Assembly: GCA_041599235.1 (NCBI GenBank) | Contig: JBFHWZ010000001.1 | Location: 1 to 46,365 of the forward strand | Length of the DNA: 46,365 nucleotides | Origin: Candidatus Woesearchaeota archaeon | Lineage (GTDB): Archaea; Nanobdellota; Nanobdellia; Woesearchaeales; ARS49 | Direction of reading: 5' to 3' | In this document: positions 4,512 to 46,365 of the stretch, one piece after another | How the letters are laid out: the number at the start of each line of letters is the position of its first letter | How positions within the stretch are numbered: position 1 is the stretch's first letter | The notes under the pieces: model-generated | The model's input: only the letters and a program-made list of their open reading frames with translations | Told to the model about the DNA's origin: nothing | Database searches by the model: none | Made by a program: the position numbers and the translations under genes

Positions 4512-5114
4512 ATGGCTGATATCAAACGTCAAGTAGCTATGAAAGTGCGGCTCGCTGAGCTTGCTTCAGGCACGTATATTCAGGAGTCAGGGCTGCGGCC
4601 AAATTACATTCTAACAAAAGATAATAAGAAGATTTCCCGGGTGAATGTCATGGGCGTCGTGGTCTCGCTCGGTGCATTTCCTGGAGCACAAAGTTTTGTT
4701 CTTGATGATGGCAGTGCAAAAATAACTGTGCGCGCGTTTGAAGAAAATCCTGCTTTTGCAGTTGACCTTGGTGTGCCGGTCTTGGTGGTTGGCAGGCCGC
4801 GTGCATACAATAATGAGATCTATGTGCTGCCTGAAATCGTGAAGCCCATAACTGATCAAAACTGGATTCAGGTGCGCAAGCTTGAGTTGGGCTCGCCAGA
4901 AGAAGCAGTGCCTGCTGTTGTTGAAGAAACAGTCCACGAGCAAAGCGCGACTGATGAGGTCTACAGCTTGATTAAGCAGTTGGATGCTGGCACTGGCGTG
5001 CTTATTGATGATGTTATTGCTAAAATTGCTGGCGCAGAGCAGGCTATTCAGGGCTTGCTCAGCAGAGGGGATGTGTTTGAAGTAAGCCCAGGCAGGGTGA
5101 AAGTGCTTGATTAG
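4512..5114 (+). CDS. RPA32/Stn1-like OB-fold ssDNA-binding protein with C-terminal winged-helix-like domain
   Basis: OB signature VNVMGVVVSL..FVLDDGSAKITVRAFEE..VLVVGRPRAYNNEIYVLPEIVKPITDQNW. C-terminal segment VYSLIKQLDAG..DVIAKI...LLSRGDVFEV resembles the RPA32 C-terminal wH. Confidence 0.6.
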   Translation: MADIKRQVAMKVRLAELASGTYIQESGLRPNYILTKDNKKISRVNVMGVVVSLGAFPGAQSFVLDDGSAKITVRAFEENPAFAVDLGVPVLVVGRPRAYNNEIYVLPEIVKPITDQNWIQVRKLELGSPEEAVPAVVEETVHEQSATDEVYSLIKQLDAGTGVLIDDVIAKIAGAEQAIQGLLSRGDVFEVSPGRVKVLD

Positions 5115-5959
5115 AATAAGATCGGTGTCACAAATACTTCTAACAATGCTGCAACAAAAAGTATGAAGACTGCTATAAGAATCAAGTCTGAGCTGTCCAA
5201 AAGTATGCGCTCAAAATTTTTTGTTGCAAAATCATGCTTTATGACTGCAACTGACAATATGCCGCCAGCAAGTCCGGCAACAAAGTATGCGGCGATTTCA
5301 GGAATGCCGTGTATGGCATAGCGTAAGATGCCTAGTCCTGTTGCATAAAAATAAGCACCGACTTTTTGAAAGCCAACTGCTGATGCGTACTGGGCAAGGT
5401 GTGTTCTGACAAAGTTGCCAGCAGCTGCTCCTATCACTGACGCGTTCCAGGACAGGATGAATATGGCGCCACTGCCGTAAATAAAGCTAAACAGGATGCA
5501 AAAGATCATCACCTTGACATTGTTGAGGAAAATTTTGTTCAGTAGGCTCAGCTGTGCCACAGAGCCAGTAACCTGCTGGTTGAGGCTGGCGATGGTTTGT
5601 GTTTGAACGCGAAATAAGCTATTGGACAGTTGTGATGGCAGCACAACATACCAGAATGCAAAGGCTACGGTCAGCCCAATAAATAGCATAAGAAAGAACA
5701 TGATTGCCTTGCTGTGCTCCTTGAGCAGCGACCGTTCTGACGGCAAAAATAAGTCTTTTTCTTCCTCTGCCTTGATGGTTGCATAAAACATTGGCAATGC
5801 TGCCATAACGGTGAGAAACACCATGACTAAACTAGCATATTCTTCAAAGATCCACAAACTCAAAAACAGCGCAATACTGCCGTAAAAAAAACCAATAATC
5901 AGTACGTGCCAAGAGTGTTTAACTGGTTTGAATGGATTGAATATTGATTCAAGCACCAT
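5111..5959 (-). CDS. SpoIIM-like (DUF95 family) polytopic membrane protein
   Basis: About 6 hydrophobic helices. Family-like core FLNNVKVMIFCILFSFIYGSGAIFILSWNASVIGAAAG. TATA 5983-5990 is centred 27 nt from ATG 5959. Confidence 0.55.
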   Translation of the reverse strand: MVLESIFNPFKPVKHSWHVLIIGFFYGSIALFLSLWIFEEYASLVMVFLTVMAALPMFYATIKAEEEKDLFLPSERSLLKEHSKAIMFFLMLFIGLTVAFAFWYVVLPSQLSNSLFRVQTQTIASLNQQVTGSVAQLSLLNKIFLNNVKVMIFCILFSFIYGSGAIFILSWNASVIGAAAGNFVRTHLAQYASAVGFQKVGAYFYATGLGILRYAIHGIPEIAAYFVAGLAGGILSVAVIKHDFATKNFERILLDSSDLILIAVFILFVAALLEVFVTPILF

Positions 5960-13294: not shown

Positions 13295-14092
13295 ATGATC
13301 GTTGAAACTGAATTTTTAAACAAAATTAAAGATTTTGGCCTCAACAGCTACGAAGCAAAACTATGGACTGCTTTGCTCTCACGGGGTATAGCAACAGCCG
13401 GCGAGTTGTCTGATATTTCAAATGTTCCACGAAGCAGAAGTTATGATGTTCTAGAAAGCCTTGAGCGCAAGGGATTTATCATTATGAAGCTGGGCAAGCC
13501 CATTAAATATATTGCTGTTCCTCCAGAAGAAGTGCTTGACCGGGTTAAAAAAAGCATTATGGACAGTGCACAGAAGCACGCGCAAACACTTGAGGGCATA
13601 AAGAAAAGCGAAGTGCTCTCAGAACTTAACCTTCTCCACAAACAAGGTCTTGATTTAGTTGAGCCAAGCGACCTTACGGGTGCAATTAAAGGCCGCACTA
13701 ACCTCTATAATCATCTTGCGGCTGCGATTAAAAACGCTGAAAAGTCAGTCAGCATATTGACTACAGAAAAAGGAGCTGCACGAAAACTCGAAGCACTTAA
13801 AACAGCTTTGCAAAAAGCAAAGGACAAAGGCGTAAAAGTGCGCATTGCAGCACCATTCGGCAAAGCATCACCTGCAGCCAAAGAACTTGGACGGTATGCA
13901 CAAGTAAAAAGTGTTGGTGGTATCGACGCTCGATTCTGCGTTGTTGACAAAAAAACAGTTACCTTTATGGCATTGGAAGACAATGCAGCACACCCTAACT
14001 ATGACTTTGGCGTGTGGGTTAACACAAAATTCTTAGCAACCTCATTTGAGAACCTCTTTGACAGGGTGTGGGGCTCAAAGCAGCCGAAATAA
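13295..14092 (+). CDS. TrmB-family transcriptional regulator, paralogue 1
   Basis: N-terminal wHTH YEAKLWTALLSRGIATAGELSDISNVPRSRSYDVLESLERKGFI. TATA 13216-13225 and SD GTGGAGG 13278-13284. Confidence 0.8.
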   Translation: MIVETEFLNKIKDFGLNSYEAKLWTALLSRGIATAGELSDISNVPRSRSYDVLESLERKGFIIMKLGKPIKYIAVPPEEVLDRVKKSIMDSAQKHAQTLEGIKKSEVLSELNLLHKQGLDLVEPSDLTGAIKGRTNLYNHLAAAIKNAEKSVSILTTEKGAARKLEALKTALQKAKDKGVKVRIAAPFGKASPAAKELGRYAQVKSVGGIDARFCVVDKKTVTFMALEDNAAHPNYDFGVWVNTKFLATSFENLFDRVWGSKQPK

Positions 14093-26698: not shown

Positions 26699-26754
26699 TT
26701 CTGTACCAGAATCTTTTTATATTTTCGTTGTTTTCAGAGCTATGGGGGTTGTAT

Positions 26755-27723
26755 ATGACAAGCACGATTATCTGGACTGAGAAGTATCGTCCTAAAGATT
26801 TTGCTGAAATCAAGGGGCAGCAAGAGATTGTCAAGCGCATCAAGGCATTGGTTGCGCAAAAGAACATCCCTCATGTGCTGTTTGCAGGACCTCCCGGAGT
26901 GGGCAAGAGCACACTGGCCTTGGTTATGGCGCGCCAGCTGTTTGGTGAGGACTGGCGGGCAAATTTTCTTGAACTGAACGCTTCTGATGAGCGCGGCATT
27001 GATGTGGTGCGCAACAAGGTTAAGGATTTTGCACGAACAAAAGCCATTGGCGATGTGCCGTTTAAGCTGATTTTTTTGGATGAATGCGATGCGCTCACCA
27101 AAGAAGCGCAACAGGCCCTGCGCAGAACCATGGAGAATTATACCAATACCTGTAGATTTATTCTTGCAGCCAACTACAGCAGCAAAATCCTTGACCCTAT
27201 TCAGTCACGCTGTGCATTATTCAGGTTTAAGCTGCTTGAGACGAAAGATATGCATGCTTTGATTGATACTATTGCCAAGCAGGAAGGCTTGACCGTTGAT
27301 GACGCAGCAAAAGCCGCGCTGGTGCAAGTGAGTGAAGGTGATTGCAGGCGCTTTGAAAACTTATTGCAAAGCTGTGCAGCTGTTGACAAGAAGATCACTG
27401 ATAAATTGGTCTTTTCCATAGCAAGCGTAGCGCAACCGCAGGACATTAAGCAAGTGGTAGAGCTTGCACTGGCAGGTGATTTTATTCGTGCGCGTGAAAA
27501 ACTCTTGTCAGTCATGCTTGAGTATGGACTTTCAGGCATTGATGTGGTGAAGCAATTGCAAAAAGAAATCTGGACTGTTGAGCTTGCCAAACGTGATAAA
27601 GTGGCTGCAATTGACAAGTGCGGTGAAATTGAGTTTCGGTTAGTAGAAGGCAGTGATGAGTTTGTGCAGCTTGAGGCATTACTGGCACATCTTACGACGC
27701 TTGGCCAGAGCTCTTCACAATAA
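26755..27723 (+). CDS. rfcS: Replication factor C small subunit
   Basis: WTEKYRPK, GPPGVGKST, FLDECD, SRC, all contiguous (no intein). Start moved to ATG 26755 because the TATA at about 26714-26725 lies before it and after the track's TTG start. Confidence 0.93.
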   Translation: MTSTIIWTEKYRPKDFAEIKGQQEIVKRIKALVAQKNIPHVLFAGPPGVGKSTLALVMARQLFGEDWRANFLELNASDERGIDVVRNKVKDFARTKAIGDVPFKLIFLDECDALTKEAQQALRRTMENYTNTCRFILAANYSSKILDPIQSRCALFRFKLLETKDMHALIDTIAKQEGLTVDDAAKAALVQVSEGDCRRFENLLQSCAAVDKKITDKLVFSIASVAQPQDIKQVVELALAGDFIRAREKLLSVMLEYGLSGIDVVKQLQKEIWTVELAKRDKVAAIDKCGEIEFRLVEGSDEFVQLEALLAHLTTLGQSSSQ

Positions 27724-28627
27724 GTTCTGTTTGAACAAATTCTTCGTAATCATACAAGGTTTCTATGCTGACAATTTGCTCAAAGTCTGTTGCAGTGGTT
27801 ACGGGCTGTGTGCAGGTTACTTTCTTGGAACCACCAAAGATGGTTGCGAAACCTTCAGCTCCTGTTGCCGTACTGGCAAGGCCCGTGCAGGTCAGCCCAG
27901 GCAGGTTGGTATTGACTTTGACCCAGACCCTGTTTTCTTTTTGCCGCGTTGTTCTATCGCAGATGCTGTTGAACTCAAAGACGCTGCCGGTGCCTGCATT
28001 GACTAAGTCAAAGCTAAAGCCGACTTTGTCTCGTGCTCTGGTTGCTTCCTGGAAGTTCTGTATCTGAATAGGGCCGCCTGAGTTGTACAATGGCTTTGCG
28101 CCAGTTACCTCGCAAATGCCTCCTTCTCGGGGATTAAGCAGGTTTCTTCTGATGCATATTTTGCTGACTGCATTAGTGCCGTAATTATAGCAGTATTCTG
28201 CGCGTACCGGGAAGCGTGCTGTTGCACCTGCAATGGATGGCAGGTAATTTAAGCCAAGGAATTCAACAAACACTGGCGGGCTCGGCAGTACTTCGCCAGT
28301 TGCCAGTTTTTGATTTGCCAGTAAGTTGTCAGGTGCTCCTGCAATAAGCTCTGCTTCTGTTTTGGCAAATTCTGCAGGATTGATGCCTGAAAGCTTGATT
28401 CTGATGTTGGTGCTCGGCACTTCATACTCTCCTTTGTTGGCTGCCTGTACAACCACATCAAAAGGATCAACGCCACTATCAAACACTTCAGAGCGCAGCT
28501 CAACAAAGCTTGCTACCACGCCTTGAGTGCCGCCTAAGTAAGGACTTTCAATATCAACTGTTTTTTCTTGGGTTTTACAGCCTACTAAGAGAACAAACAA
28601 TGCGATTAATAATAGGAGCTTCCTCAT
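27692..28627 (-). CDS. Lipobox surface protein, paralogue A (two CARDB/Ig-like-looking halves, six conserved Cys)
   Basis: MRKLLLLIALFVLLVGC lipobox. Motifs shared with B and C: GTQGVVASF, AANKGEYEV, YCYNYGTNAVSKICI, GGPIQIQN, DLVNAGTGSVF, final LYDYEEF. Own TATA on the minus strand at 28656-28664. Confidence 0.75.
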   Translation of the reverse strand: MRKLLLLIALFVLLVGCKTQEKTVDIESPYLGGTQGVVASFVELRSEVFDSGVDPFDVVVQAANKGEYEVPSTNIRIKLSGINPAEFAKTEAELIAGAPDNLLANQKLATGEVLPSPPVFVEFLGLNYLPSIAGATARFPVRAEYCYNYGTNAVSKICIRRNLLNPREGGICEVTGAKPLYNSGGPIQIQNFQEATRARDKVGFSFDLVNAGTGSVFEFNSICDRTTRQKENRVWVKVNTNLPGLTCTGLASTATGAEGFATIFGGSKKVTCTQPVTTATDFEQIVSIETLYDYEEFVQTELIVKSSGQAS

Positions 28628-28655
28628 TTTTTTAGTTTGATTACGCCTGTGTGGT

Positions 28656-28664
28656 TATTTAAAT
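28656..28664 (-). promoter_or_regulatory. BRE/TATA (minus strand AAAGATTTAAATA) for lipoprotein A
   Basis: Centre is about 33 nt upstream of ATG 28627, implying a leader of about 6 nt. It lies in the 43-nt gap after the stop of paralogue B. Confidence 0.55.
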
Positions 28665-28670
28665 CTTTCG

Positions 28671-29624
28671 TTAATAAATAGGGAGTATTTCAAGCTCTTT
28701 GAAGATGGTATTTCGATAGCCATAGCTTAAGATAACCGTAATGGGGGTGGTGTATGCATCTTCACCAAAGGTCATGAACTCGCAGAAGATGCTACCGCGG
28801 CCATTGGTTAAGCGCATGTGGCCATCGTCAAGGGGCTTGCACGTTGGCCTGATTGAGGTGCCACTTATAATAACGTCCTCTACCATAACATAATCAACTT
28901 CATCAAAGCCCAACGGTGTTGTAAAGGGGCTGCACTTATCCAAATAGTCAGCACCAAACCTAAAGACATCGCCGCTACCTACATTATGTACGCTGATTTT
29001 GAATCGTGTTCTGCGCGGGCTGGGCTCTACTTCAATATCAGAAACTGCTATGGGTGCGCCTTGGGTTCCTAAGCTCACTGCAGTCGGATAGCATACTTTT
29101 TGTTTAGTGGTTGCAGATAGTGGCTGTGGGTCAATGCAGATGGTTTCTGAAGCTATTGTTTTATAGCCATAGCAGGCTGTTGCGAGAATGCGTACTGGGA
29201 AGCGGTCAATGTTTTTTGCCCGCAAACTGCGTATGACGCCTTCAAATGATGCGCGGTCAAGTGCACCTTGAGGAACAAACTGGCTTCTGCCTTCTAAGAA
29301 CGGCAATGAATAGCCGCTGGTTCGTATGTTGGCAATAATGCTTGGATCAAATCCTGATATATAGATACGGTCGCCAGGGCCGCCAACATCATAGGTGCCT
29401 TTATTTTCCACATCAACAACTGCAAGGAACTTTTCATTGTCAAACAAGCGTTGTGGCGGCAGGTTGGGCACAAAGCTCATGCGCAATCCTTCGCTGCCAG
29501 TGCGAAATTCTGGATAGAAGTTTTCTTTGCTTGGCGCTTGGCCCCCTGGCTGGCAGCCAGCTAAGAGCAGTACTGCAAGTATGAGCATCACCTTTTTGTT
29601 CGTAAGCAGTTCTTTTTTGTTCAT
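28671..29624 (-). CDS. Lipobox surface protein, paralogue B
   Basis: MNKKELLTNKKVMLILAVLLLAGC lipobox. Shared motifs: GSEGLRMSF, VENKGTYDV, ACYGYKTIASETICI, QGAPIAVSD, SVHNVGSGDVF, LSYGYRN. Confidence 0.75.
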   Translation of the reverse strand: MNKKELLTNKKVMLILAVLLLAGCQPGGQAPSKENFYPEFRTGSEGLRMSFVPNLPPQRLFDNEKFLAVVDVENKGTYDVGGPGDRIYISGFDPSIIANIRTSGYSLPFLEGRSQFVPQGALDRASFEGVIRSLRAKNIDRFPVRILATACYGYKTIASETICIDPQPLSATTKQKVCYPTAVSLGTQGAPIAVSDIEVEPSPRRTRFKISVHNVGSGDVFRFGADYLDKCSPFTTPLGFDEVDYVMVEDVIISGTSIRPTCKPLDDGHMRLTNGRGSIFCEFMTFGEDAYTTPITVILSYGYRNTIFKELEILPIY

Positions 29625-29651
29625 TTTTTAAATACGTCAGAAATTCCACGG

Positions 29652-29660
29652 TTATAAATA
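29652..29660 (-). promoter_or_regulatory. TATA box (minus strand TATTTATAA) for lipoprotein B, bracketed by a 9-nt inverted repeat
   Basis: Centre is about 32 nt from ATG 29624, implying a leader of about 5 nt. CAGAAATTC (29638-29646) and GAATTTCTG (29670-29678) flank it. Confidence 0.5.
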
Positions 29661-29685
29661 TCTAGCGGTGAATTTCTGAGCGTGC

Positions 29686-29707
29686 TCAAAAACCCTGCGG
29701 TTTTTGA
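29686..29707 (-). terminator. Hairpin with T5 run directly after the stop of lipoprotein C
   Basis: TCAAAAACC-CTGC-GGTTTTTGA forms a perfect 9-bp stem with a 4-nt loop, 8 nt downstream of stop 29715-29717 on the minus strand. Confidence 0.4.
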
Positions 29708-29714
29708 CATTTTT

Positions 29715-30635
29715 CTAGCGCGCTGGTTTTTGAATAGTATAACTGGTTATAACATTATCAACATACCCATAGTCCATGGTGATGGTCAAGGGCGCAAGGT
29801 AGGTTCCGTATGATTGGTGAATGCCTGTAGGAAGCCTGCAGGCCACTTTGTTTTCTCCTTGGCGCAAGCGCAGGGTTTCAGGAGTGCATTGCAGATAGTC
29901 ATCGCTTAAGCGCGCTCGCACACGTACTTGGTTAAGATTTTGCAAGGGCCTGCCTGAGCACGCGTCTAAGAGCTGTCCGGTGCTGACTACTTGGCCCCTG
30001 CCGCGGTTTTCAATGTGTAGCACAAATTCAGGAGTGATGGTATCAGGGTTAGCATGCGGTAACATGCGCGGTTCAATGTTGGTTACTGCAAGTGGCGCTC
30101 CTTGGCCGCCAGCAAGACTTTGCGCTGTTGGCGCGCAGGTCTTTTGCGGAACATCACCGGTTAAATCTGTATCAACGCAAGTGGTGAGTGTTGCAGTGGT
30201 CTTGTATGGGTAACAGGCTGTGAACTGCAGGGTGGTGCTGTAGCGTTCAGTTAAAGGATCCAGTTTGCCGTTGATTATTCTGAATCCTATGCGTTCTTCA
30301 GTTCCTTGCGGATAAAAAACACTTTTACCTTGCACTGAAAAGCTGCCTGCATCAGAATCAAGCACTGTTGCATACTGGCGTTCAGTGGAAAGTTTGTAAT
30401 ATCCGCCTTGGACATCGCTTGAGCCCTTGTTGTGCAGTATCAGTGTTGCCTGCGAATAGGTTTCTTCGTACACTTCAGGGGGAGGAGCACCTTGCATGAA
30501 CTCCATGACAATGCCTTCAGTGCCATAATTGATTTCAGGCACGTCTATTGTTTCTTTTTCCTCTGGTGGTGCCATTTGCAAAGCACCACAGCCAGCAAGG
30601 AACAAGACTATGATAAGCACGAGCATTTTTTTCAT
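29715..30635 (-). CDS. Lipobox surface protein, paralogue C
   Basis: MKKMLVLIIVLFLAGC lipobox. Shared motifs: GTEGIVMEF, LHNKGSSDV, ACYPYKTTATLTTCV, QGAPLAVTN, HIENRGRGQV, MDYGYVDN. ATGA overlap with the upstream gene. Confidence 0.75.
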   Translation of the reverse strand: MKKMLVLIIVLFLAGCGALQMAPPEEKETIDVPEINYGTEGIVMEFMQGAPPPEVYEETYSQATLILHNKGSSDVQGGYYKLSTERQYATVLDSDAGSFSVQGKSVFYPQGTEERIGFRIINGKLDPLTERYSTTLQFTACYPYKTTATLTTCVDTDLTGDVPQKTCAPTAQSLAGGQGAPLAVTNIEPRMLPHANPDTITPEFVLHIENRGRGQVVSTGQLLDACSGRPLQNLNQVRVRARLSDDYLQCTPETLRLRQGENKVACRLPTGIHQSYGTYLAPLTITMDYGYVDNVITSYTIQKPAR

Positions 30636-32098
30636 GGTTGCTGTTCCACCCTAAAGCCAGTTTGTGTTTCATAGAGGTATTTGTAGTTGGCACTGACTTT
30701 GAAATTGTTGATTGCCAAGGGTGATTCTCCGAGCAAGTCTTGGGTGCTTTCTATCTCAGTATGAGCTCTAAAGCTATAGATGCTCACGTTCTTGAGCTTG
30801 GCAAGGTCTGCTGCAGGAAGCTGATAGACATTAACTAAAGCAGGATCACACACTGCTTGCTCGTCAGTATCTAATGAACTGCAGTCAACAGCTTGCACAT
30901 CAATGCCGTTGATGTCAGTGACTTTCAGCCCTTTAGGAACGTAAAATATGAGCTTGGTTATTTCTTTTATTTTGCCTGTCCAGGCATTGGTGACTGAAGC
31001 GCCAATAGTTGGCCCTTTTTCTCCTTGTGCAATGCCAATTGGCTGTGAGCCAAAGCCCATGCCAATAGCTACAGGTCCTGAAGTGTAAATCGTAGTGGGT
31101 TGTTTGTCTGGAATGCCTTCTAGTGGGTCAACTTGCCGCCTGCGGTAATCACGCAAGCGTTCTTTGTCCATAAAGTAGGCTTTATGATATGCTCGAGTGC
31201 CAAAGTCAAAGTCTGCGCTGAGCTTTCCTGTGTAATAGCCTTCTGGCAAGTTATCGAAGACGCAGTCAATGTCTGTTTCTTCAAACGTCTCCACCCTAAA
31301 CGTTTTTGTTGGGATGATTGCATTTGCAGGGGTGTTGTCTGCTTTGCATTCTATGTTGATGGTTATGGGCTTGTCTAAGGTTTCTGCTTTGAGGTTTGCA
31401 AAGAGCGTGACTGGCTCATTGACAAAGAACCTGCTTGCTGCAGGCCGCAGATTTTGCAGGAACACTCCTAGGCGTTTAGTGGCTGCTTGATCAACTGTGC
31501 CAGTGTAGTAATCACCTTTAGCTATCGCTATTTCTTCTTCAACTGTTTTCCAGAACTGTGCTCTGAAGCCTATGAGTCCTTGCCACATATTTACCGTAGC
31601 TTGGTTGACTGCGTGCAGGAAATATCTGAGCACCATACCCGGACTGAGCATGGGCACATCAGGAATATCATAATACTGATTTGCATAGTCCATGATAGGC
31701 TCACCAAATGAGAAAATCATAAGGCCAAACCAAAACAATAGGAAAAATAAGCCAAACAAGCGCACTTTATTTTTGCCGATTAAGTACCAGACCCATATGG
31801 GGTTGACCATGAAAAACATGATGCTTGTTGCAGTGGTGAACTTCGCAACAAACCCTAAGAGCGGCAAAGCAAGTATGGAAATGAGGGTAACAAAGAATAG
31901 TTCTTTTCTGCTTTCTTTGATAATGCCGCTTGCAAGCCAGGCAACAAATACATATCCGAAAATCGCAACGGACCAGCCAGCAATTGTTATGGGTCTGCCA
32001 GGATGGCGAAGAAAACTGTCAAGGATGTGAACAAGAATAGCAAAAATTAAAACTAAGTATCCTTTCGGCTCTCTATCAACAGGGGTTCTATCAGCCAT
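30632..32098 (-). CDS. Polytopic membrane protein (about 5 N-terminal TM helices) with ~350-aa ectodomain
   Basis: Hydrophobic segments lie between residues ~14 and ~130. The ectodomain has 4 Cys and motifs loosely echoing the lipoproteins (FDFGTRAYHKAY, SGPVAIGMG, VTNAWTGKI, ANYKYLYE). It starts 1 nt after the stop of the upstream gene. Confidence 0.7.
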   Translation of the reverse strand: MADRTPVDREPKGYLVLIFAILVHILDSFLRHPGRPITIAGWSVAIFGYVFVAWLASGIIKESRKELFFVTLISILALPLLGFVAKFTTATSIMFFMVNPIWVWYLIGKNKVRLFGLFFLLFWFGLMIFSFGEPIMDYANQYYDIPDVPMLSPGMVLRYFLHAVNQATVNMWQGLIGFRAQFWKTVEEEIAIAKGDYYTGTVDQAATKRLGVFLQNLRPAASRFFVNEPVTLFANLKAETLDKPITINIECKADNTPANAIIPTKTFRVETFEETDIDCVFDNLPEGYYTGKLSADFDFGTRAYHKAYFMDKERLRDYRRRQVDPLEGIPDKQPTTIYTSGPVAIGMGFGSQPIGIAQGEKGPTIGASVTNAWTGKIKEITKLIFYVPKGLKVTDINGIDVQAVDCSSLDTDEQAVCDPALVNVYQLPAADLAKLKNVSIYSFRAHTEIESTQDLLGESPLAINNFKVSANYKYLYETQTGFRVEQQP

Positions 32099-32099
32099 T

Positions 32100-33248
32100 T
32101 CATTCTACGCGTACTTCTACTTTGACAATGTTAAGTGCTGTCAAAGGAAGAATTTCAATAAAGTTATTGCCTTCAACTATAACAGGGGTGATGTCTCGGG
32201 TAAAGCGCGGTTCTCTTTGGTCAATCACATCTAATCTGCCATTAATATTTGTTTGCGCACCTTTCAATCTGCGGTCATCAACAAACTGAATATCAAGCAC
32301 AATGCTTGCAGCACCTTGCTGCACTGCATCCCACAAGCGTGGTTCAACATTGAAATAATCAATAAAGCCTTTGCTTGGCTTGAGGAAGGTCTTTAAGCGC
32401 AACTGCTCAACACCAAAGCTGCCTCTGCTTGCTCTGATGGTCAGAACATTTTTGCCCAGCTTGAGGTCTTCTTTGAAAATATCTTGCCTGTTCAGGCTTT
32501 CACAGGCAGGAACGCCTGAGAAGATGATTTCATCATTGAGGGTGATTTCCATAGCGCCAACAGTTGCTTGGCTGCAGAGCGGATAAAAGTCTAGGAATGC
32601 GCTTTCAAAATTATTGTATTCTTCTTCTGAAATAGGTATGGTTTCAAGAGCGCGTTGCTTGCGCACATCAGTTACATCACCAATGACTTTGATATCTCTG
32701 AATTCATAAGTCTTGGTTGGTATGCCAAAGCCTTGGACCTCGAATTTGAGCGTGTTTTGTTGGCGCAAGTATTCTGGTCTGATTGATACGGGCGCTGGAT
32801 TTTGAACAGTGATGCTTCCTTCAAAGATTTGGAATCCGTTGATGCTGATAACCAGGGTGCCTTTGTGCACTGGTGTTTGGAAGCTGAGCATGACATTTCC
32901 TGTGTTTGCAGGGTCTGCTACGGGAAAGGTGATTTCTTTGAATGCGTCGCCATAGAGGCCTTTTGAAATAGTGAAGGGGCTGAGCGTGGTGAGTATCTGT
33001 GCTTCGCGCCCTTCTTGTAGGTATATGTTAGGCAGGTAATGGTCGCGTTCGCGTGCTCCAACAAATTCAAGGCTGCCAACTGGTGCGAGCAAAAGCACAT
33101 TGCTGCCTGGTGCTCCTGGCGGTAGTTCTGTTATTTCTTCATCTGCTAGCAGCGCTTCGCGCTCTGCTGGTGGTAAGAAGAGGATGTAAAAGATAAAGAG
33201 AAGGGTGATGATGCCAATGAGTGCTCCTACTTGCGCCTTCTTGTTCAT
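32100..33248 (-). CDS. Bitopic (signal-anchor) surface protein with three-fold internal beta-rich repeat
   Basis: MNKKAQVGALIGIITLLFIFYILF anchor. Repeats: ISINGFQIFEG..QNTLKFEV, ITLNDEIIFSG..GKNVLTIRA, TNINGRLDVI..GNNFIEILP. Start moved from 33317 to ATG 33248 because the minus-strand TATA 33292-33299 and SD GGTGA 33254-33258 lie inside the longer ORF. Confidence 0.7.
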   Translation of the reverse strand: MNKKAQVGALIGIITLLFIFYILFLPPAEREALLADEEITELPPGAPGSNVLLLAPVGSLEFVGARERDHYLPNIYLQEGREAQILTTLSPFTISKGLYGDAFKEITFPVADPANTGNVMLSFQTPVHKGTLVISINGFQIFEGSITVQNPAPVSIRPEYLRQQNTLKFEVQGFGIPTKTYEFRDIKVIGDVTDVRKQRALETIPISEEEYNNFESAFLDFYPLCSQATVGAMEITLNDEIIFSGVPACESLNRQDIFKEDLKLGKNVLTIRASRGSFGVEQLRLKTFLKPSKGFIDYFNVEPRLWDAVQQGAASIVLDIQFVDDRRLKGAQTNINGRLDVIDQREPRFTRDITPVIVEGNNFIEILPLTALNIVKVEVRVE

Positions 33249-33291
33249 ATATGTCACCAGTTTTTGTTTTTCTGTATTCCTTTGTTTTCTG

Positions 33292-33299
33292 TATATAAA
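33292..33299 (-). promoter_or_regulatory. TATA (minus strand CACAAAAGTTTATATA) for the 32100-33248 operon
   Basis: About 47 nt upstream of ATG 33248, with SD GGTGA in the leader. Confidence 0.55.
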
Positions 33300-33311
33300 C
33301 TTTTGTGTAAT

Positions 33312-33329
33312 AAGCAAAAGATTTATATA
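33312..33329 (+). promoter_or_regulatory. BRE/TATA AAGCAAAAGATTTATATA for the Tyr-rich protein gene
   Basis: Identical to the 18-mer at 26370-26387. The leader carries a G6 SD at 33368-33373, 7 nt before ATG 33381. Confidence 0.6.
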
Positions 33330-33380
33330 GGGGTTTTACTATTGTTTGATAGTGAAATTCAATAGCAGGGGGGATTAGTA

Positions 33381-33776
33381 ATGAAGATACAACAGCTATT
33401 ACTTGGACTGATTCTAGCAGTGCTGCTCAGCGCGCCAGTATTTGCAAGCCACACCTATGGTTATAATTATCCAACGTATGGCGGGCACAGCTATGATTAT
33501 TCATATTCTCGCAATTACGATTACACAAGCGTAAGCGAAAACGAGTACCAGCATAGCAGGTCCTACGGCGGACCATACTATCATGCCAATGGCTACAGCT
33601 ATGATTATGGCAGAAGCAGGTCATTTACGTTTGGTTCCTATTCTGAAACAGAGCATGCCTCAGGCAACAGCTATGGCGGCTATGGTGGCAGATCATATGG
33701 CCGATATCACTATCCATACAGCAGCTATGGCAGTCCTTATTACCGTAACAGCAATTACAGATATTACAGCTACTGA
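33381..33776 (+). CDS. Secreted low-complexity Tyr/Gly/Ser/Asn/Arg-rich protein
   Basis: Signal peptide MKIQQLLLGLILAVLLSAPVFA|SH. By my count the mature ~108 aa contain 30 Tyr and no Lys, Leu, Ile, Met, Trp or Cys. There is a strong promoter and SD. Confidence 0.7.
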   Translation: MKIQQLLLGLILAVLLSAPVFASHTYGYNYPTYGGHSYDYSYSRNYDYTSVSENEYQHSRSYGGPYYHANGYSYDYGRSRSFTFGSYSETEHASGNSYGGYGGRSYGRYHYPYSSYGSPYYRNSNYRYYSY

Positions 33777-33778
33777 TC

Positions 33779-34435
33779 ATGAAACAGCAACTACTTATTG
33801 GCGCACTGGTAGTGCTCTTGGTGCTTCCTGCAGCAAGCGCTAAGGTTTTCTATTATTCTGATGAGGTTGATTATCAGGATAACCTGGCGTATGCGCACTT
33901 GAATCACTATGATGGCATTGATGCTGATGACTTTGTTGATTTTGATGATTATACTTGCGTGAGCTTAGATGACCAGCGCGCAATTGCCAATGCCAATCAG
34001 TATGACCATGTTGATCCGTGGACTGCAGCTACTATCAGCAGGCAAGACTTGAAAAAATTGTCACAGGCAGACCGCAATAGGATAGCTGATGAAAATCCTT
34101 ATGATGCTATTGACCGCGATGATGTTGACAGCTTTGATGATTTTTCATGTTCAACGTTGCGGGATTACAACGACTACGCACGAACCAATGCGTATGACCG
34201 ATATGATGAAGCTGACTTTACCCGCTTAGATCACATTGAGATTGCGCAAGAGGTTGGCAAAGACCGATACCACTTTTTTGAGCTGAGCGATTTTGATAGA
34301 TTTAACCTGAACCAGATCAGGTATAGGCCTGTTGCAAAATATCTGTATCCTGGCTATACCTATGGATGGAACGGCTATTATTATAACCAGTATGGCAGCA
34401 GAAATGCCTATCCGGTGTATGGTGCAGTTTACTAA
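33779..34435 (+). CDS. Secreted Asp-rich protein with duplicated YD-ID-DD..FDD-x-x-C module and Tyr-rich C-terminal tail
   Basis: Signal peptide MKQQLLIGALVVLLVLPAASA|K. Units YDGIDADDFVDFDDYTCVSLDD..NQYD and YDAIDRDDVDSFDDFSCSTLRD..NAYD lie 64 aa apart. Tail is YLYPGYTYGWNGYYYNQYGSRNAYPVYGAVY. The gene starts 2 nt after the preceding stop. Confidence 0.7.
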   Translation: MKQQLLIGALVVLLVLPAASAKVFYYSDEVDYQDNLAYAHLNHYDGIDADDFVDFDDYTCVSLDDQRAIANANQYDHVDPWTAATISRQDLKKLSQADRNRIADENPYDAIDRDDVDSFDDFSCSTLRDYNDYARTNAYDRYDEADFTRLDHIEIAQEVGKDRYHFFELSDFDRFNLNQIRYRPVAKYLYPGYTYGWNGYYYNQYGSRNAYPVYGAVY

Positions 34436-34468: not shown

Positions 34469-35509
34469 ATGAAAATCATTGCCTCGAGCTTCAAGAAGGG
34501 CTTTGCAAAGATCATGCCTGAAACAAGTGATGACTTGTGGTATCTTTCGCAGTTAGTTGATGCTGGTGATGTGGTCAAAGGCAAGACTTTGCGCAAGATA
34601 AAGCCCACTGAAGAGGCCAAAGCAATCCGCAAGCCGGTTTTTATGATTCTGAAAGTTGAAAAGACTGAGTTCAGTCCTGAAGCATTGCGTATTCTGGGCA
34701 CTGTGCTCGAAGGCCCTGAGGATGTGCCGCATGGCAGTCATCATACGTTTAATGTTGAAACAGGAACTGTGCTGACTATTGAAAAAACAGAATGGCTGAA
34801 CTATCAGATTAAGCGTTTGAAAGAAGCTGCAGAAAGTGCTGCTCCAAAAATTCTTATTTGTGTATTTGATCGCGAGGAAGCCTTGTTTGCTATGATGAAG
34901 CGCGCAGGCTATGTTGTCCTGGGAACCCTGAAGGGTGATGTTGCTAAAAAGCGCATGGATGAAAAAGGCAAGGAGTTCTGGCCAAGCATCATCAAGCTAC
35001 TTGAGTCCTATGATGCGCGACACAAGCTTGACAAGATTATTCTTGCAAGCCCTGCATTTTGGAAAGAAGAATTGTTCAAAGTGCTTAAGAATGACGCGCT
35101 CAAGAAAAAAATCATTCAAGCTACTTGTAGTGGCGCTGATGAAAGCGCTATTGCAGAAGTGCTGAAACGCGACGAAACAAAACACGCATTGCAGCAGGAG
35201 CGGGTCAGCAAGGAGATTAAGCTGGTTGAGTCAGTGCTGGCTGAAATCAGCAAAGGCGGTGCTGTTGCGTATGGCATGGATGAGGTTGCTAAGGCTGTAG
35301 AAGCAGGCGCGGTCAAAGAACTTCTCGTGACTGATGGGTTTATCAATAAGCGCAGGCTTGCAAACACGTTTAAGCAGCTTGATGTGATTATGAGGGCTGT
35401 TGACAAACAAAAAGGTGAGGTTATTATTGTCAGCAGTGATCATGATGGTGGCCAAAAGCTTGACGGCATTGGCGGTATTGGCGCTCTTTTACGATACAAA
35501 CTCTATTGA
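34469..35509 (+). CDS. pelA: Pelota (aDom34) mRNA surveillance factor
   Basis: N-terminal IMPETSDDLWYLSQLVDAGDVVKGKT followed by eRF1-like domains 2 and 3. Confidence 0.9.
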   Translation: MKIIASSFKKGFAKIMPETSDDLWYLSQLVDAGDVVKGKTLRKIKPTEEAKAIRKPVFMILKVEKTEFSPEALRILGTVLEGPEDVPHGSHHTFNVETGTVLTIEKTEWLNYQIKRLKEAAESAAPKILICVFDREEALFAMMKRAGYVVLGTLKGDVAKKRMDEKGKEFWPSIIKLLESYDARHKLDKIILASPAFWKEELFKVLKNDALKKKIIQATCSGADESAIAEVLKRDETKHALQQERVSKEIKLVESVLAEISKGGAVAYGMDEVAKAVEAGAVKELLVTDGFINKRRLANTFKQLDVIMRAVDKQKGEVIIVSSDHDGGQKLDGIGGIGALLRYKLY

Positions 35510-35702: not shown

Positions 35703-36506
35703 ATGATTGTTAAAGAAGAATTTTTGGCAAAGCTAAGACGCTATTTTTCATTGAACCTCTATGAGGTTAAGATTTGGACAGCGCTGCTCAGTCGTGGTGT
35801 GGCAACTGCAGGTGAGCTTTCTGACATTGCAAATGTTCCACGAAGCAGAAGTTATGATGTTCTTGAAAGTCTTGAACGCAAAGGCTTTGTGGTCATGAAA
35901 CTGGGCAAGCCCATTAAATATATTGCAGTCCAGCCAAGTGAAGTTCTTGACCGAGTCAAGAAGAACATGCGCGAAGACGCAGAAGAAAAAGTCAAGCGCT
36001 TGGAAGACTTGAAAAGCACTGATGTTCTGAATGAGCTTAACTTGCTTCATTCCCAAGGTATTGAGCTGATTGAGCCAGCAGAGCTCTCAGGGAGCTTGCG
36101 GGGCAGGCACAACTTATACAATCACCTTGAGTTGACCATCAGAAATGCAGAAAAGTCAGTGACTATCATGACGACCTCGCAGGGATTCTTGCGCAAAGTA
36201 GAAGGCCTCAAGCCAGTCTTTGATAAACTGAAAAAACGCGGTGTTAAAGTACGCATCGCAGCGCCGATGACAAAAGAAGCAAAGCATTCACTCAAAGAAT
36301 TGGGCAACGTGGCTGAGGTAAAGAATGCTGACACCAAAGCGCGCTTCTGCATTGTTGACGGCAAAGAGCTTATCTTCATGATCTTGGACGACAAGGAAGT
36401 GCATCCAACCTATGATGTCGGCATCTGGGTCAACACGCCATTCTTTGCCAACGCACTGGAGAACCTATTTGACGTTGCATGGAAGTCCATGAAAACAGCA
36501 AAATAA
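35703..36506 (+). CDS. TrmB-family transcriptional regulator, paralogue 2
   Basis: YEVKIWTALLSRGVATAGELSDIANVPRSRSYDVLESLERKGFV. Collinear with 13295-14092 over its whole length. SD AAGGGGGG lies 9 nt upstream. Confidence 0.8.
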   Translation: MIVKEEFLAKLRRYFSLNLYEVKIWTALLSRGVATAGELSDIANVPRSRSYDVLESLERKGFVVMKLGKPIKYIAVQPSEVLDRVKKNMREDAEEKVKRLEDLKSTDVLNELNLLHSQGIELIEPAELSGSLRGRHNLYNHLELTIRNAEKSVTIMTTSQGFLRKVEGLKPVFDKLKKRGVKVRIAAPMTKEAKHSLKELGNVAEVKNADTKARFCIVDGKELIFMILDDKEVHPTYDVGIWVNTPFFANALENLFDVAWKSMKTAK

Positions 36507-43471: not shown

Positions 43472-44107
43472 GCCAAAACTGCGCCAGCATTCTTCTCGCA
43501 TGGAACGGTCCAGGATTTCAGAACAGTGCTCTGTTTCCTCTGAGCGGTACACGCCGTCTTTGATAGCAATATCTTGGCAGATTGCTTTTGCCTGCATAAA
43601 GTATTCTTCATTCAAGGTAGCTCGTGCAGTGCATGCAGCAAAGTCTTCGGGATGCTCTTCTTCGCAATAGCCTGGGTCTCTGCTTGCTTCTGCTTTGCAC
43701 CAAGAATCGTCACACAACGCAGGGTTGCCAGTAATCAAAGCCCTGCAACTATCTTGGACTTCTTCTGGTTCGCTTCTGCAAAACCCTTCATCTTTTGTTA
43801 TGATTGCTTTGCAGTAATCTGGGTCTTCCATCTGTTCGCATAAGGTCGCATCGCTATTTTTTAGTGCCAACACATACTGGTAATCATCTTGGAAGCTTTG
43901 CTCGCAAGCAGCTAAGGTGTCTGAAAAAGCAGCCTCAAAGGGAACTACTTGTGCATCAGTAACTGGTCGTTCTTGTGATGCAAATTGGATTATGACATAG
44001 ACTGCTAGAATGATCAATAGGGCTATGCCAATGCTTGAAATGATGATCCTGTAAGGCGCCTCTTTGTGCGGCAAAGGCGGATGCGGCAATTCATACTTCT
44101 TAGCCAT
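43457..44107 (-). CDS. Bitopic membrane protein with acidic ectodomain built from short single-Cys repeats
   Basis: TM segment IIISSIGIALLIILAVYVIIQFA. Ectodomain contains LCEQMEDPDYCKAIITKDEGFCRSEPEEVQDSCRALITGNPALCDDSWCKAEASRDPGYCEE. The leaderless TATA at 44129-44138 is centred 27 nt from ATG 44107. Confidence 0.6.
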   Translation of the reverse strand: MAKKYELPHPPLPHKEAPYRIIISSIGIALLIILAVYVIIQFASQERPVTDAQVVPFEAAFSDTLAACEQSFQDDYQYVLALKNSDATLCEQMEDPDYCKAIITKDEGFCRSEPEEVQDSCRALITGNPALCDDSWCKAEASRDPGYCEEEHPEDFAACTARATLNEEYFMQAKAICQDIAIKDGVYRSEETEHCSEILDRSMREECWRSFGLPIE

Positions 44108-44128
44108 GCTATTTTTGTTCCTGCATTC

Positions 44129-44163
44129 CTATTTAAAGCTTTGCGTACGCAACCTTTAAATAG
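44129..44163. promoter_or_regulatory. Two mirrored TATA boxes (CTATTTAAAG / CTTTAAATAG) flanking a 12-nt perfect palindrome TTGCGTACGCAA
   Basis: 10-nt perfect inverted repeat at 44129-44138 and 44154-44163; inner palindrome at 44141-44152. It lies between two divergent surface-protein genes. Confidence 0.55.
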
Positions 44164-44200
44164 TCTTATTTGCTTGTTCGTCTATAAAAGAGGGTTAGTA

Positions 44201-46365
44201 ATGAGGGAAGGGTGTAAAGCAATAGTACTAGCAATGCTTCTTGTAATGCTTGCTCCAAGCGCAACTGCAATTATCACGCAAAACTTTAATCTGCATGTGG
44301 GCAGAAGCATTACTCCTGTATTTCCTACTCCGGGCGTGGGCGAACTTGGCTCAAAAATGGTTTACTTTGATGAGGACTATTATGTTACGCGTGTGCACAT
44401 GTGTTCGCATCGTTCAAAAGGAAGCTCATCAACTATTGCAGGAGATGCTTATCTTGATGGCAACCTTGTTCAATATGGGCCAACACATTACTTCAAACGA
44501 TCAAGTAGTCGAAGCTTATACTGCGTAAACTATTATTTTCCTAATCTCCGTATGGATGCAGTGCATTTTTATGCCACGCGTTATCATAGTCGTGGCCTCA
44601 GTAATGTATATGCAGAGTATTGGCCATACCAATTTTCTCACACAGTTATTGGCTATTCCATAGCAGTACTCGGCGAGCTCGGTGATATACTACAAGGCAG
44701 AACAGTAACCACTGCACCAACACATTACATACGCTCAGATAATCCGCAAGTAAAAGTGTGGGTTGGTGATGAAACACAGTTTAGCAGAACAAGCACCGCA
44801 GATATCACTGAGCCTGTCTTTGCCTGCCTTGATACGAACTTTAATGGCCAGTGTGACTTGCTTGAAGATGATTATGATGAGTGTGATATAGCTGGCGGCG
44901 ACTGGTATAGAGACGAATGCTGCGGTGGAGCAAACGCAACAGTTGCTGACTGTGAGTTTGTAACTGACATTAAAGCATATTGCGGCTATACCACACCAAC
45001 TGAGCCAGAATGGGCTCCCTTAGATGAAAAAGGCAATATTCACGAATTGTTCTTTTGCCCTGGCTTGAGCGTAACCAGTACAGGAGATGAATTTCTCGGG
45101 TGCGAAGTAACTGCCAATGTGACTTTAGCCACTAACATATCAGCTGAACTTAAAAAAACTGATTATGCGGCATCAGCATCGCAATTGTATGTTCCTTCCT
45201 GTGATGATGATATGGGCAGGCTTGGCTGGTTTACTGAAAGCCAGCGTACAGGCAGTGGTGATAATGAGGCAGTAGTGTATCGTTATATTGCAGCATGTGG
45301 CGATGGTGTCTTAGGCGGCCAAATTACAACAGGGACTTGCGCAGCAGACCAAACTTTAGTAGGGTCATTTATTGATAAATATAAGTCTGAATACGGCAAT
45401 GTGTTCACCACGAACTATAATGTGTGCATCAAGGGAAGGTATGGTGGCGAAATACAATCTGCAAGTGGCACAGATACGCCCCCTGCGTGTACGCCGGGGT
45501 TGATTGATGTAGGCACCTGGCAAGACCGCATTGAAACAACAGGCACTGCAAATCAACAACCAACAGTTGATAAGACCTATCGCCTGTGCTTGTCTGACCA
45601 GTTGACTGGCTTGCGGGGCTTTGAGTTTGAGAACATTACAGGCTATAGTGGTTCGCATGAATATTACTGCACAACTGATTATATTTTTGAGTGCCGTGGT
45701 GATGATCCTCAGTACAGTGCAATTAATACGTATGATACTGGCTTTACCAGCACTGATATTGCTGGCCAGCGCTGTCCTAATGGTTTAGTGAGCCATTGGG
45801 CATTTGAAGATGATGCATCAGATTCTATTGGCATAAACAATGGCTCAGCAACAGGTGTTGAATATGTTTCTGGCAAAGTGGGCAAGGCTGCTTCGTTTGC
45901 AACCGGCGACCAAGTGCTGGTGCAGCATGATATCAGCTTGCATCCGCCGCGCAGGTTTAGTGTTGAAGCATGGATTAATCCAAGTGATGTTACGGGAACC
46001 AGGGCTATTGTGCATAAGCGTTCAACTATTTACACAGTGGTTATTGATGGCGGCAAGCTCAAGGCATTAGTGGAAACAGACGGAAGTTCGCCAACAAGCT
46101 TTGTTGGCACACAAGGTATTAATGCAGATGAATGGACGCATATTGCAGTCACGTATAATTCAGGCAGACTGAAATTCTACATCAATGGTGTTTTGAAGGA
46201 AACTATTACGAGCATTACAGGCAGAATTCAGGAATCAACTGGAGAGTTTATTATTGGCAAAGCACGTGGCGGCACTACACAAGCAGTAACTGAGCAATAT
46301 GAAGGTTTAATTGATGAATTAGCATTTTACAATCAAGAGCTTGATGCGCAAACTATAGCAGAGCA
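44201..46365 (+). CDS. Large secreted Cys-rich surface protein, N-terminal 721+ codons (continues beyond window), with LamG/concanavalin-A-like lectin domain
   Basis: Absent from the supplied track because it has no in-window stop. I translated the frame codon by codon from ATG 44201 to 46363 and found no stop. Signal peptide MREGCKAIVLAMLLVMLAPSATA. LamG_3-like pattern from about 45782: LVSHWAFEDDASDSIGINNGSATGVEYVSGKVGKAASF..FSVEAWINPS..EWTHIAVTYNSGRLKFYINGV..GLIDELAFYNQEL. SD AGAGGG lies 7 nt upstream. Confidence 0.85.
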   Translation, partial: MREGCKAIVLAMLLVMLAPSATAIITQNFNLHVGRSITPVFPTPGVGELGSKMVYFDEDYYVTRVHMCSHRSKGSSSTIAGDAYLDGNLVQYGPTHYFKRSSSRSLYCVNYYFPNLRMDAVHFYATRYHSRGLSNVYAEYWPYQFSHTVIGYSIAVLGELGDILQGRTVTTAPTHYIRSDNPQVKVWVGDETQFSRTSTADITEPVFACLDTNFNGQCDLLEDDYDECDIAGGDWYRDECCGGANATVADCEFVTDIKAYCGYTTPTEPEWAPLDEKGNIHELFFCPGLSVTSTGDEFLGCEVTANVTLATNISAELKKTDYAASASQLYVPSCDDDMGRLGWFTESQRTGSGDNEAVVYRYIAACGDGVLGGQITTGTCAADQTLVGSFIDKYKSEYGNVFTTNYNVCIKGRYGGEIQSASGTDTPPACTPGLIDVGTWQDRIETTGTANQQPTVDKTYRLCLSDQLTGLRGFEFENITGYSGSHEYYCTTDYIFECRGDDPQYSAINTYDTGFTSTDIAGQRCPNGLVSHWAFEDDASDSIGINNGSATGVEYVSGKVGKAASFATGDQVLVQHDISLHPPRRFSVEAWINPSDVTGTRAIVHKRSTIYTVVIDGGKLKALVETDGSSPTSFVGTQGINADEWTHIAVTYNSGRLKFYINGVLKETITSITGRIQESTGEFIIGKARGGTTQAVTEQYEGLIDELAFYNQELDAQTIAE

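Follow-up and report, generated by a model that had tools for sequence, protein, structure and literature searches.

A 46,365-nucleotide stretch of DNA from a Candidatus Woesearchaeota archaeon (contig JBFHWZ010000001.1 of assembly GCA_041599235.1; the window) contains seven open reading frames (ORFs), A to G, at 27692-34435, flanked by rfcS and pelota (Table 1). Sequence comparison indicates that five of these genes, E-D-C-B-A, are a conserved, coupled unit that is found order-wide in Woesearchaeota. The products of the cluster are extracytoplasmic, membrane- or lipid-anchored, and cysteine-paired, as predicted from sequence and structure models. We infer that the five proteins associate physically, bind glycans or peptidoglycan, and have a role in host contact. 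The cluster may well encode an unglycosylated surface complex that binds, and in relatives degrades, the bacterial cell wall, a reading that we hold with slightly less than even confidence.

To describe the conservation of the unit, one genome per GTDB species was scanned and ORFs were assigned by jackhmmer, giving 46 loci. The order pelota(-), E D C B A (+), rfcS(-) was present in essentially every one of these loci with enough flank, and the same E-D-C-B-A order is kept in a relative whose E is 28% identical. A first-pass annotation, made from the sequence alone, had treated all seven genes as one block and raised the question of its recurrence in relatives. The order of E-D-C-B-A is strongly conserved, but F and G are restricted to one subclade. 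D and the first lipoprotein gene overlap by 4 nt in 20 of 42 loci, and in 37 of the 42 they lie no more than 10 nt apart, overlaps included. Homologues of D, C, and E come almost solely from metagenome-assembled genomes (MAGs) labelled Woesearchaeota, Nanoarchaeia, or Nanoarchaeota, and the organism is a Woesearchaeota-type DPANN archaeon. Many third-party annotation (TPA) MAGs labelled "uncultured Methanosarcinales archaeon" (L009, L015, L017, L019, L022, L024, and others) carry the Woesearchaeota-specific cluster; this label looks wrong, because it is contradicted by both the cluster and the synteny.

In two marine Woesearchaeota loci, L025 and L026, D is accompanied by one lipoprotein only and stands in a different neighbourhood, away from pelota and rfcS. 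The pair therefore travels as a unit, independent of housekeeping synteny. D of these loci bears NlpC/P60 or Amidase_2, and the pair (L025 9-3659, L026 9518-13129) adjoins a polytopic membrane protein of ~660 amino acids (aa) and giant secreted proteins (1078-1430 aa).

Export signals were called on the basis of hydropathy, motifs, AlphaFold2 (AF2) helices, and conservation. The signals that had been noted on every product were confirmed for all seven and are also conserved in homologues. Beyond the lipobox cysteine, A, B, and C contain six cysteines each, D four, and E and G two each, so that the even ectodomain counts of the first reading (6, 6, 6, 4, 2, 2) hold; F has none. None of the seven proteins reaches threshold in Pfam or NCBIfam, and PDB sequence searches with single sequences and family profiles gave no match. 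These searches agree with the earlier failure to assign the products to an enzyme, transporter, pilin, or S-layer family. No characterised family was matched with confidence by profile or structure, and the likeness found is at the level of the fold, namely jelly-roll lectin-like domains and immunoglobulin-like (Ig-like) sandwiches.

The strongest clue to function comes from the family of protein D. An exhaustive profile search of 1.84 billion representatives returned 1354 members (representative clusters), 818 of them at E <= 1e-30, mostly long. Short forms of ~490-530 aa, including D of the window, end 12-28 residues past the second sandwich domain, and about half of the genomic D homologues carry C-terminal extensions of 95-537 residues. 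A peptidoglycan hydrolase domain was found at the C-terminus of 13 of 45 genomic homologues. Among 62 long representatives the number is about 25 (~40%), a share that is biased upward because the 62 were picked among the long forms within the top 150 matches. SLT was matched in 9 of the 45 genomic homologues (plus one weak match, E = 0.0017) and in 17 of the 62 long representatives. NlpC/P60 occurred in two proteins of each set, Amidase_2 in one and two, respectively, and Glucosaminidase in one genomic homologue. SLT_2, Amidase_3, and Lysozyme_like (one each) and Peptidase_M23 (two) were seen among the long representatives. Further domains included the FnIII-like Pur_ac_phosph_N (three genomic, eight long), fn3 (one genomic, four long), and PKD (one genomic).

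Judged from these matches, D is a modular scaffold to which hydrolases of at least five catalytic classes are fused C-terminally in homologues. To our knowledge, archaea lack peptidoglycan, and the recurrent attachment of murein-cleaving enzymes, from at least five unrelated classes, to one stalk therefore argues that the stalk presents something to the bacterial wall. D of the window is part of this family, as it aligns over its full length with the SLT-bearing homologue P0024 (29% identity, 84% coverage, E = 1e-45) and also with 9-17 other SLT-bearing homologues, revealing a common conserved core. The SLT-bearing long homologues share the transmembrane anchor, the GDYYTG motif, and the two sandwich domains with D of the window. 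NCBI lists one long homologue, P0221 (MBN2457498.1), as a "transglycosylase SLT domain-containing protein". A host-contact role in a DPANN episymbiont had been offered as speculation in the first-pass annotation, and it gains support from the peptidoglycan hydrolases on D homologues of other species. In the window itself, Pfam and NCBIfam detect no peptidoglycan hydrolase domain in D or in the other six proteins.

Structure models were made with AF2 for D and E, and both were compared with PDB and BFVD using Foldseek. D consists of five hydrophobic helices followed by a domain of ~290 aa with four cysteines. Its model, built with 26 homologues, has a predicted local distance difference test (pLDDT) score of 86.7 and comprises five transmembrane helices, a 40-residue stalk helix (153-193), a flexible linker, and two beta-sandwich domains. 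The membrane domain is poorly conserved except for an HxxD motif in the outer half of the first transmembrane helix (H24, D27), a P, and a W. Foldseek matched the model to tandem Ig-like modules, such as integrin calf/thigh, RbmA, MSCRAMM adhesins, factor XIII barrels, and the C-terminal domain of AglB; since all TM-scores were low (0.1-0.25), the matches of D, like those of E, give a domain class and not a family. All D homologues examined share an invariant GDYYTGxVD motif. It corresponds to residues 195-203 (window ~31490-31516, minus strand), lies between the stalk helix and the first sandwich in the sole low-confidence linker of the model (pLDDT < 50), and may be a candidate site for partner binding, metal binding, or cleavage.

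Two other identities were considered for D and rejected. Homology to AglB/STT3 is contradicted by the number of transmembrane helices (5 in D versus 13), the missing STT3 profile match, and the presence of GDYYTG instead of WWDYG. A lipoprotein-processing enzyme might be suspected from the His/Asp pair in the first transmembrane helix and the coupled lipoprotein gene; the large Ig-like ectodomain, the hydrolase fusions, and the restriction to one order speak against it. Some long D forms (L051, L031, L048, L023, L024, L005) have highly charged N-terminal cytoplasmic extensions of 100-400 residues, which are Lys/Glu-rich and coiled-coil-like, sometimes with extra transmembrane helices. These extensions suggest a cytoplasmic partner or regulation.

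The three proteins encoded downstream of D are, by their N-termini, lipobox lipoproteins for which lipidation is predicted. Each begins with a charged n-region and a hydrophobic core, followed by the lipobox cysteine (LVGC in A, LAGC in B and C; with the preceding residue LLVGC, LLAGC, and FLAGC, respectively). A strict lipobox, [LVI][ASTVI][GAS]C, is present in 82 of 108 A/B/C homologues, and a cysteine follows the hydrophobic region in all 108. The Pfam model LPAM_1 matched 8 of 22 A/B/C homologues, with a weak match for B of the window. AliA, of the archaeal lipoprotein pathway, is reported to occur in DPANN archaea (Hong et al. 2025, PMC12462473). A, B, and C share canonical lipoboxes with the lipoproteins of this pathway, a likeness that defines a class of anchoring rather than a function. 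The six cysteines beyond the lipobox are invariant across C homologues. B and C are 31% identical in BLASTP (E = 1e-34) and A and B 28% (E = 6e-12), and hhalign gave a probability of 100% for all three pairs (B-C, E = 1e-71). The paralogy of A and B had been recognised before, and C, which had been left out, is equally paralogous. In 30 loci, an A orthologue stands third after D. Longer variants of B, C, and E occur in some loci and have no recognisable extra domains.

The lipoproteins also resemble the outer part of D. The D ectodomain is collinear with them over 243 columns, with an hhalign score of 28.0 (E = 0.004, probability 8-19%), compared with a maximum of 24.6 in 30 block-shuffled controls and 14.4 for the reversed profile. 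In iterative jackhmmer searches of the locus ORFs, D stayed separate from A, B, and C. The comparison is suggestive of a shared two-domain architecture, and the D ectodomain and A/B/C are possibly distant homologues.

Protein E has 126 homologues at 28-55% identity. Its AF2 model (pLDDT 91.5, built with 54 homologues) shows one N-terminal transmembrane helix, a short disordered linker, and three all-beta jelly-roll domains that are galactose-binding-domain-like. Domains 1 and 2 are similar to each other and represent internal repeats (hhalign probability 96%). In the PDB, Foldseek matched the jelly-roll sugar-binding domains of glycoside hydrolase family 35 (GH35) beta-galactosidases, reelin, BcsB, AftD, rhamnosidases, and Cry toxins (E = 7e-7 to 1e-3), and in BFVD phage tail proteins and F5/8-type-C and PA14 domain proteins. 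Sub-threshold Pfam matches in E homologues were to Glyco_hydro_2_N, carbohydrate-binding module (CBM)-like domains, and CBM60. On the model, E is lectin-like in fold, and carbohydrate binding is putative. At the N-terminus, 25 of 31 homologues have [KR][KR][GA]Q directly ahead of the hydrophobic helix and four more have near-variants, although several homologues have 5-10 small or polar residues between the motif and the helix. An invariant LPPxER follows the helix, with P26 and R30 at its outer end.

A further property of the cluster is the avoidance of N-x-S/T sequons. The seven proteins of the window contain one sequon (A has none) where 11.2 are expected from composition; 22 cytoplasmic proteins of the window contain 24 versus 28.9 expected. 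When homologues in loci L002-L052 were counted, the A/B/C families had 13 sequons versus 208 expected (ratio 0.06, a depletion of ~16-fold), the G family 0 versus 10, the F family 3 versus 11.7, D ectodomain homologues 37 versus 73, and the E family 88 versus 134. Homologues of pelota and rfcS together had 117 versus 74 expected. Control motifs in A/B/C (the reverse orientation, D-x-S/T, Q-x-S/T, and N-x-A/G) gave ratios of 0.7-1.8, and other secreted-looking proteins in the loci ranged from sequon-rich (26 versus 9.8) to sequon-poor (1 versus 13.7). We take the depletion as independent evidence that the products face the N-glycosylation machinery, outside the cell, and on these counts selection seems to keep them free of glycosylation. 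Unglycosylated surfaces would be expected for tight packing or ligand binding. Such sequon avoidance is atypical of archaeal S-layer glycoproteins.

A mechanism can be proposed from these properties. The lineage-specific and presumably co-transcribed set E-D-C-B-A would form a disulfide-stabilised, unglycosylated assembly on the outer face of the membrane. D may act as the hub, with the five-helix anchor and stalk holding its two Ig-like domains off the membrane and, in many species, with a C-terminal module on the stalk that would cleave peptidoglycan. The lipoproteins C, B, and A, built like the D ectodomain, and the lectin-like E would assemble around D; speculatively, E and D may touch through H24 and D27 in the first transmembrane helix of D and P26 and R30 of E. 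E, the sandwich domains, or both would bind wall glycans of a bacterial partner or prey. The assembly would thereby dock the archaeon on the bacterium and, when an enzyme module is present, open the wall locally. Since D is enzyme-less in this organism, the complex would be for adhesion or docking only, or the hydrolase would be encoded elsewhere. This agrees with the earlier suggestion of a structural or adhesive envelope complex lacking an ATPase, as no ATPase was found in or beside the cluster in any locus. A more far-reaching version, which we consider doubtful, is that E-D-C-B-A is the core host-interaction machine of Woesearchaeota, a hetero-oligomer of four Ig-like subunits (D, C, B, and A) and a lectin (E) that docks on peptidoglycan and breaches the wall via interchangeable muralytic modules of D.

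Several points weigh against a wall-binding complex. D of the window has no enzymatic module, and no peptidoglycan hydrolase was found among the 10 other window ORFs scanned; the strongest functional clue therefore comes from homologues and not from the window. Neither the Ig-like nor the jelly-roll fold is specific, the TM-scores of all Foldseek matches are low, and the homology between the D ectodomain and A/B/C is weak by hhalign E-value and probability. Synteny within this archaeal order extends to the whole neighbourhood (tyrS, rfcS, pelota, trmB, pheST), so that part of the positional conservation of the cluster is simply genome conservation. Finally, we know of no Woesearchaeon in culture.

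A structural envelope, in the form of an S-layer or membrane anchor, is a somewhat unlikely alternative in which the lipoproteins and D would make up a proteinaceous wall and the hydrolases would merely be displayed. The occurrence of the cluster in essentially all sampled genomes, among housekeeping genes, would suit such a wall, and a surface could be tiled by three paralogues with lipid anchors. Archaeal S-layer proteins typically consist of Ig-like domains in series, in some cases with a lipid or stalk anchor (PMC10903991, PMC5744192), and in its AF2 model and Foldseek matches D looks like a tandem Ig-like protein on a stalk. However, the proteins are small (about 300 aa), and the minimal version with D and C in L025 and L026 carries a hydrolase. 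The three separate orthologous lines A, B, and C, together with D and E in fixed order, are more suggestive of a hetero-oligomer of set composition than of a lattice made from one or two proteins. N-glycosylation is usual in archaeal S-layer proteins, a habit that the 16-fold avoidance of sequons in A/B/C fits poorly. It is very improbable that there is no single system and that unrelated exported proteins are adjacent through regional synteny. Although the flanking housekeeping genes are equally conserved in order, this is contradicted by the conserved translational coupling, the paralogy among three or four members, the co-transfer of D and C to another context, and the sequon depletion and even cysteine counts common to all members.

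The N-terminal motif of E raises the option of a pilus- or bindosome-like system, in which E would be a class III (prepilin-type) signal protein, cleaved behind [KR][GA] and put together by machinery like that of type IV pili whose genes lie outside the cluster, with D and the lipoproteins as accessories. The motif, present or nearly so in most homologues, resembles euryarchaeal prepilin sites such as KGQ. This option is nevertheless improbable, because Pfam class III signal and archaeal pilin models matched none of 54 E homologues, even at E <= 1, the spacer between motif and helix is variable, and the LPPxER after the helix is typical of a retained anchor. Moreover, an assembly ATPase, a PilC-like protein, and a prepilin peptidase were not found in or beside the cluster in any locus. 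There is a similarly slim prospect that the cluster serves nutrient capture, with the lipoproteins and E binding wall fragments or glycans for a transporter, as in Sus-like systems, or acting as substrate-binding proteins (SBPs) of an ATP-binding cassette (ABC) importer. The combination of beta-sandwich lipoproteins, a CBM-like protein, and, in relatives, a hydrolase parallels SusE/F/G of Bacteroidetes, and DPANN archaea depend on scavenging (PMC8204110). Against nutrient capture, no permease, ATPase, or TonB-type transporter was found in or beside the cluster in any locus, and no SBP family was matched in Pfam, NCBIfam, or PDB; A/B/C sequences give weak CARDB/Ig-like signals rather than those of the alpha/beta SBP fold. 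The poorly conserved membrane domain of D matched no PDB transporter by sequence, and none was prominent in Foldseek.

Comparison with known systems helps to place the proposed wall-binding complex. On paper, the Bacteroidetes SusE/F and SusG proteins work like the cluster, combining co-encoded surface lipoproteins of tandem beta-sandwich domains, a CBM-like component, and a glycan hydrolase. There is no sequence homology, however, and the cluster has no SusC/D-type transporter, belongs to a single-membrane archaeon, and would have the peptidoglycan of another cell as its glycan. D shares an anchor, a helical stalk, and projecting beta-sandwiches with archaeal S-layer stalk proteins such as Sulfolobus SlaB (PMC10903991). 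SlaB-type stalks are anchored by one C-terminal helix and D by five N-terminal transmembrane helices; in addition, the cluster has no canopy protein, avoids sequons, and lacks sequence similarity to these systems. The periplasmic subunit BcsB of bacterial cellulose synthase, a membrane-anchored chain of carbohydrate-binding jelly-rolls, was a recurrent Foldseek match of E (E = 4e-5 to 1e-3) with TM-scores of about 0.23. It differs from E in its C-terminal anchor, flavodoxin-like domains, and partner BcsA, and the cluster has no glycosyltransferase.

Part of the D family has probably been noticed before. Woesearchaeota and Pacearchaeota have been described to encode "large extracellular lytic transglycosylase proteins", which were proposed to attach to bacterial walls (2021, PMC8204110), and a predatory lifestyle has been proposed for some Woesearchaeota (Vigneron et al. 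2022, PMC9723730). Among Nanoarchaeota, peptidoglycan hydrolases are plentiful (PMC12352652). The SLT-bearing long D homologues most likely account for all or some of the proteins noticed in PMC8204110 (large SLT-domain surface proteins of DPANN archaea, fam00969) and PMC9723730. The long SLT-bearing relatives are thus already known, and the system is not wholly unknown. Both studies describe single proteins recognised by their catalytic domain and not a conserved enzyme-less scaffold, other hydrolase classes, or an operon; D of the window differs from these proteins in having no SLT module. A literature search that left most subscription-journal papers outside its reach yielded nothing specific on a Woesearchaeota surface or lipoprotein system, and no account of E, the paralogous lipoproteins, the core without enzyme, or the operon.

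Table 1. Genes and control elements of the cluster and its flanks (positions in the window)
Feature	Position	Strand	Description
rfcS	26728-27723	+	Convergent with A
A	27692-28627	-	Predicted lipoprotein, 311 aa; third paralogue; own TATA box
TATA-like box of A	28656-28663		
B	28671-29624	-	Predicted lipoprotein, 317 aa; second paralogue; own TATA-like box
TATA-like box of B	29652-29661		
Hairpin 3' of C	29686-29707	-	9-bp stem, 4-nt loop, then T-run
C	29715-30635	-	Predicted lipoprotein, 306 aa; first paralogue; start overlaps D stop
D	30632-32098	-	488 aa; five-helix transmembrane anchor, stalk helix, two Ig-like sandwiches; short form
E	32100-33248	-	382 aa from ATG 33248; signal anchor and three jelly-roll domains
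Divergent control region	33249-33380		132 bp between E and F; read from sequence
TATA box of E	33292-33299	-	
TATA box of F	33322-33329	+	
G-rich Shine-Dalgarno-like element	33368-33375		In divergent region
F	33381-33776	+	131 aa; secreted Tyr/Gly/Ser-rich low-complexity protein
G	33779-34435	+	218 aa; secreted Asp-rich protein; starts 2 nt after F
pelota	34469-35509		Flank on F/G side

In the window, 1 nt separates the stop of E from the start of D, and C shares its first 4 nt (ATGA) with the end of D. The translational coupling of E, D, and C that had been described, ending in a hairpin, is therefore seen in the sequence. The intergenic fold at this hairpin has an energy of -25.2 kcal/mol (z = -3.7 versus shuffles), and the hairpin is a candidate terminator or processing site closing the E-D-C unit. 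TATA-like boxes 5' of both B and A likewise match the promoters assigned to them earlier. A mechanical ORF call places the start of E at TTG 33317. This was rejected, since the TATA box lies between that TTG and the ATG at 33248, and the 23 extra codons are promoter DNA. The ATG (MNKKAQ...) is the true start, as in an independent gene call on an identical metagenomic contig, and the divergent region therefore measures 132 bp, the length given in the first reading. A scan for sigma-70 promoters and terminators was uninformative for an archaeon. At the other end of the cluster, rfcS and A share 32 nt at their 3' ends (27692-27723), and related loci are similarly tight and convergent.

F and G are, from their distribution, clade-specific additions outside the conserved core; homologues occur in about nine loci, all of close relatives with short D forms. 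Both have cleavable-looking signal peptides (VFA|SH in F, ASA|KV in G). Their composition is as first noted: mature F is 27.8% Tyr (30 of 108 residues), and G is 15% Asp, with two D-rich repeats that hold one conserved cysteine each and a Tyr-rich C-terminus. A match of G to NCBIfam Rv0361_Cterm fell below the cut-off. The two proteins may perhaps have a matrix, adhesive, or Ca-binding role.

Other genes of the window deserve brief mention. An ORF of at least 761 aa (44081-46365, plus strand), which runs off the window end, has a C-terminal Laminin_G_3/ConA-like lectin domain (Pfam E = 2.6e-27) and is a probable surface protein with normal sequon content (5 versus 4.9 expected). Two TrmB-like regulator paralogues, at 13295-14092 and 35703-36506 (both plus strand), have nearly identical N-termini (MIVETEFLNKIKDF...LWTALLSRGIATAGELSD versus MIVKEEFLAKLRRY...IWTALLSRGVATAGELSD); one of these genes lies directly 3' of pelota, as in all related loci. 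A SpoIIM-family membrane protein (5114-5959, minus strand; Pfam E = 5.6e-14) and a 361-aa protein (3334-4416, minus strand), whose sole match is a sub-threshold Dictyostelium CTDC repeat, are uncharacterised in archaea.

Woesearchaeota are among the most widespread uncultured archaea. With a near-universal cluster in which the hub has repeatedly gained wall-cutting enzymes, of at least five classes, the hypothesis of a life on bacteria, or of predation on them, can be tied to specific molecules, and the distinction between long, enzyme-bearing and short, enzyme-less D is a ready marker of lifestyle. The apparent strong selection against N-glycosylation is unusual for archaeal surface proteins. 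If the cluster encodes a structural envelope, it would be a new, multi-lipoprotein type of archaeal wall. If instead a docking and breaching machine is confirmed, archaea would for the first time have a defined apparatus for physically attacking or tapping bacteria.

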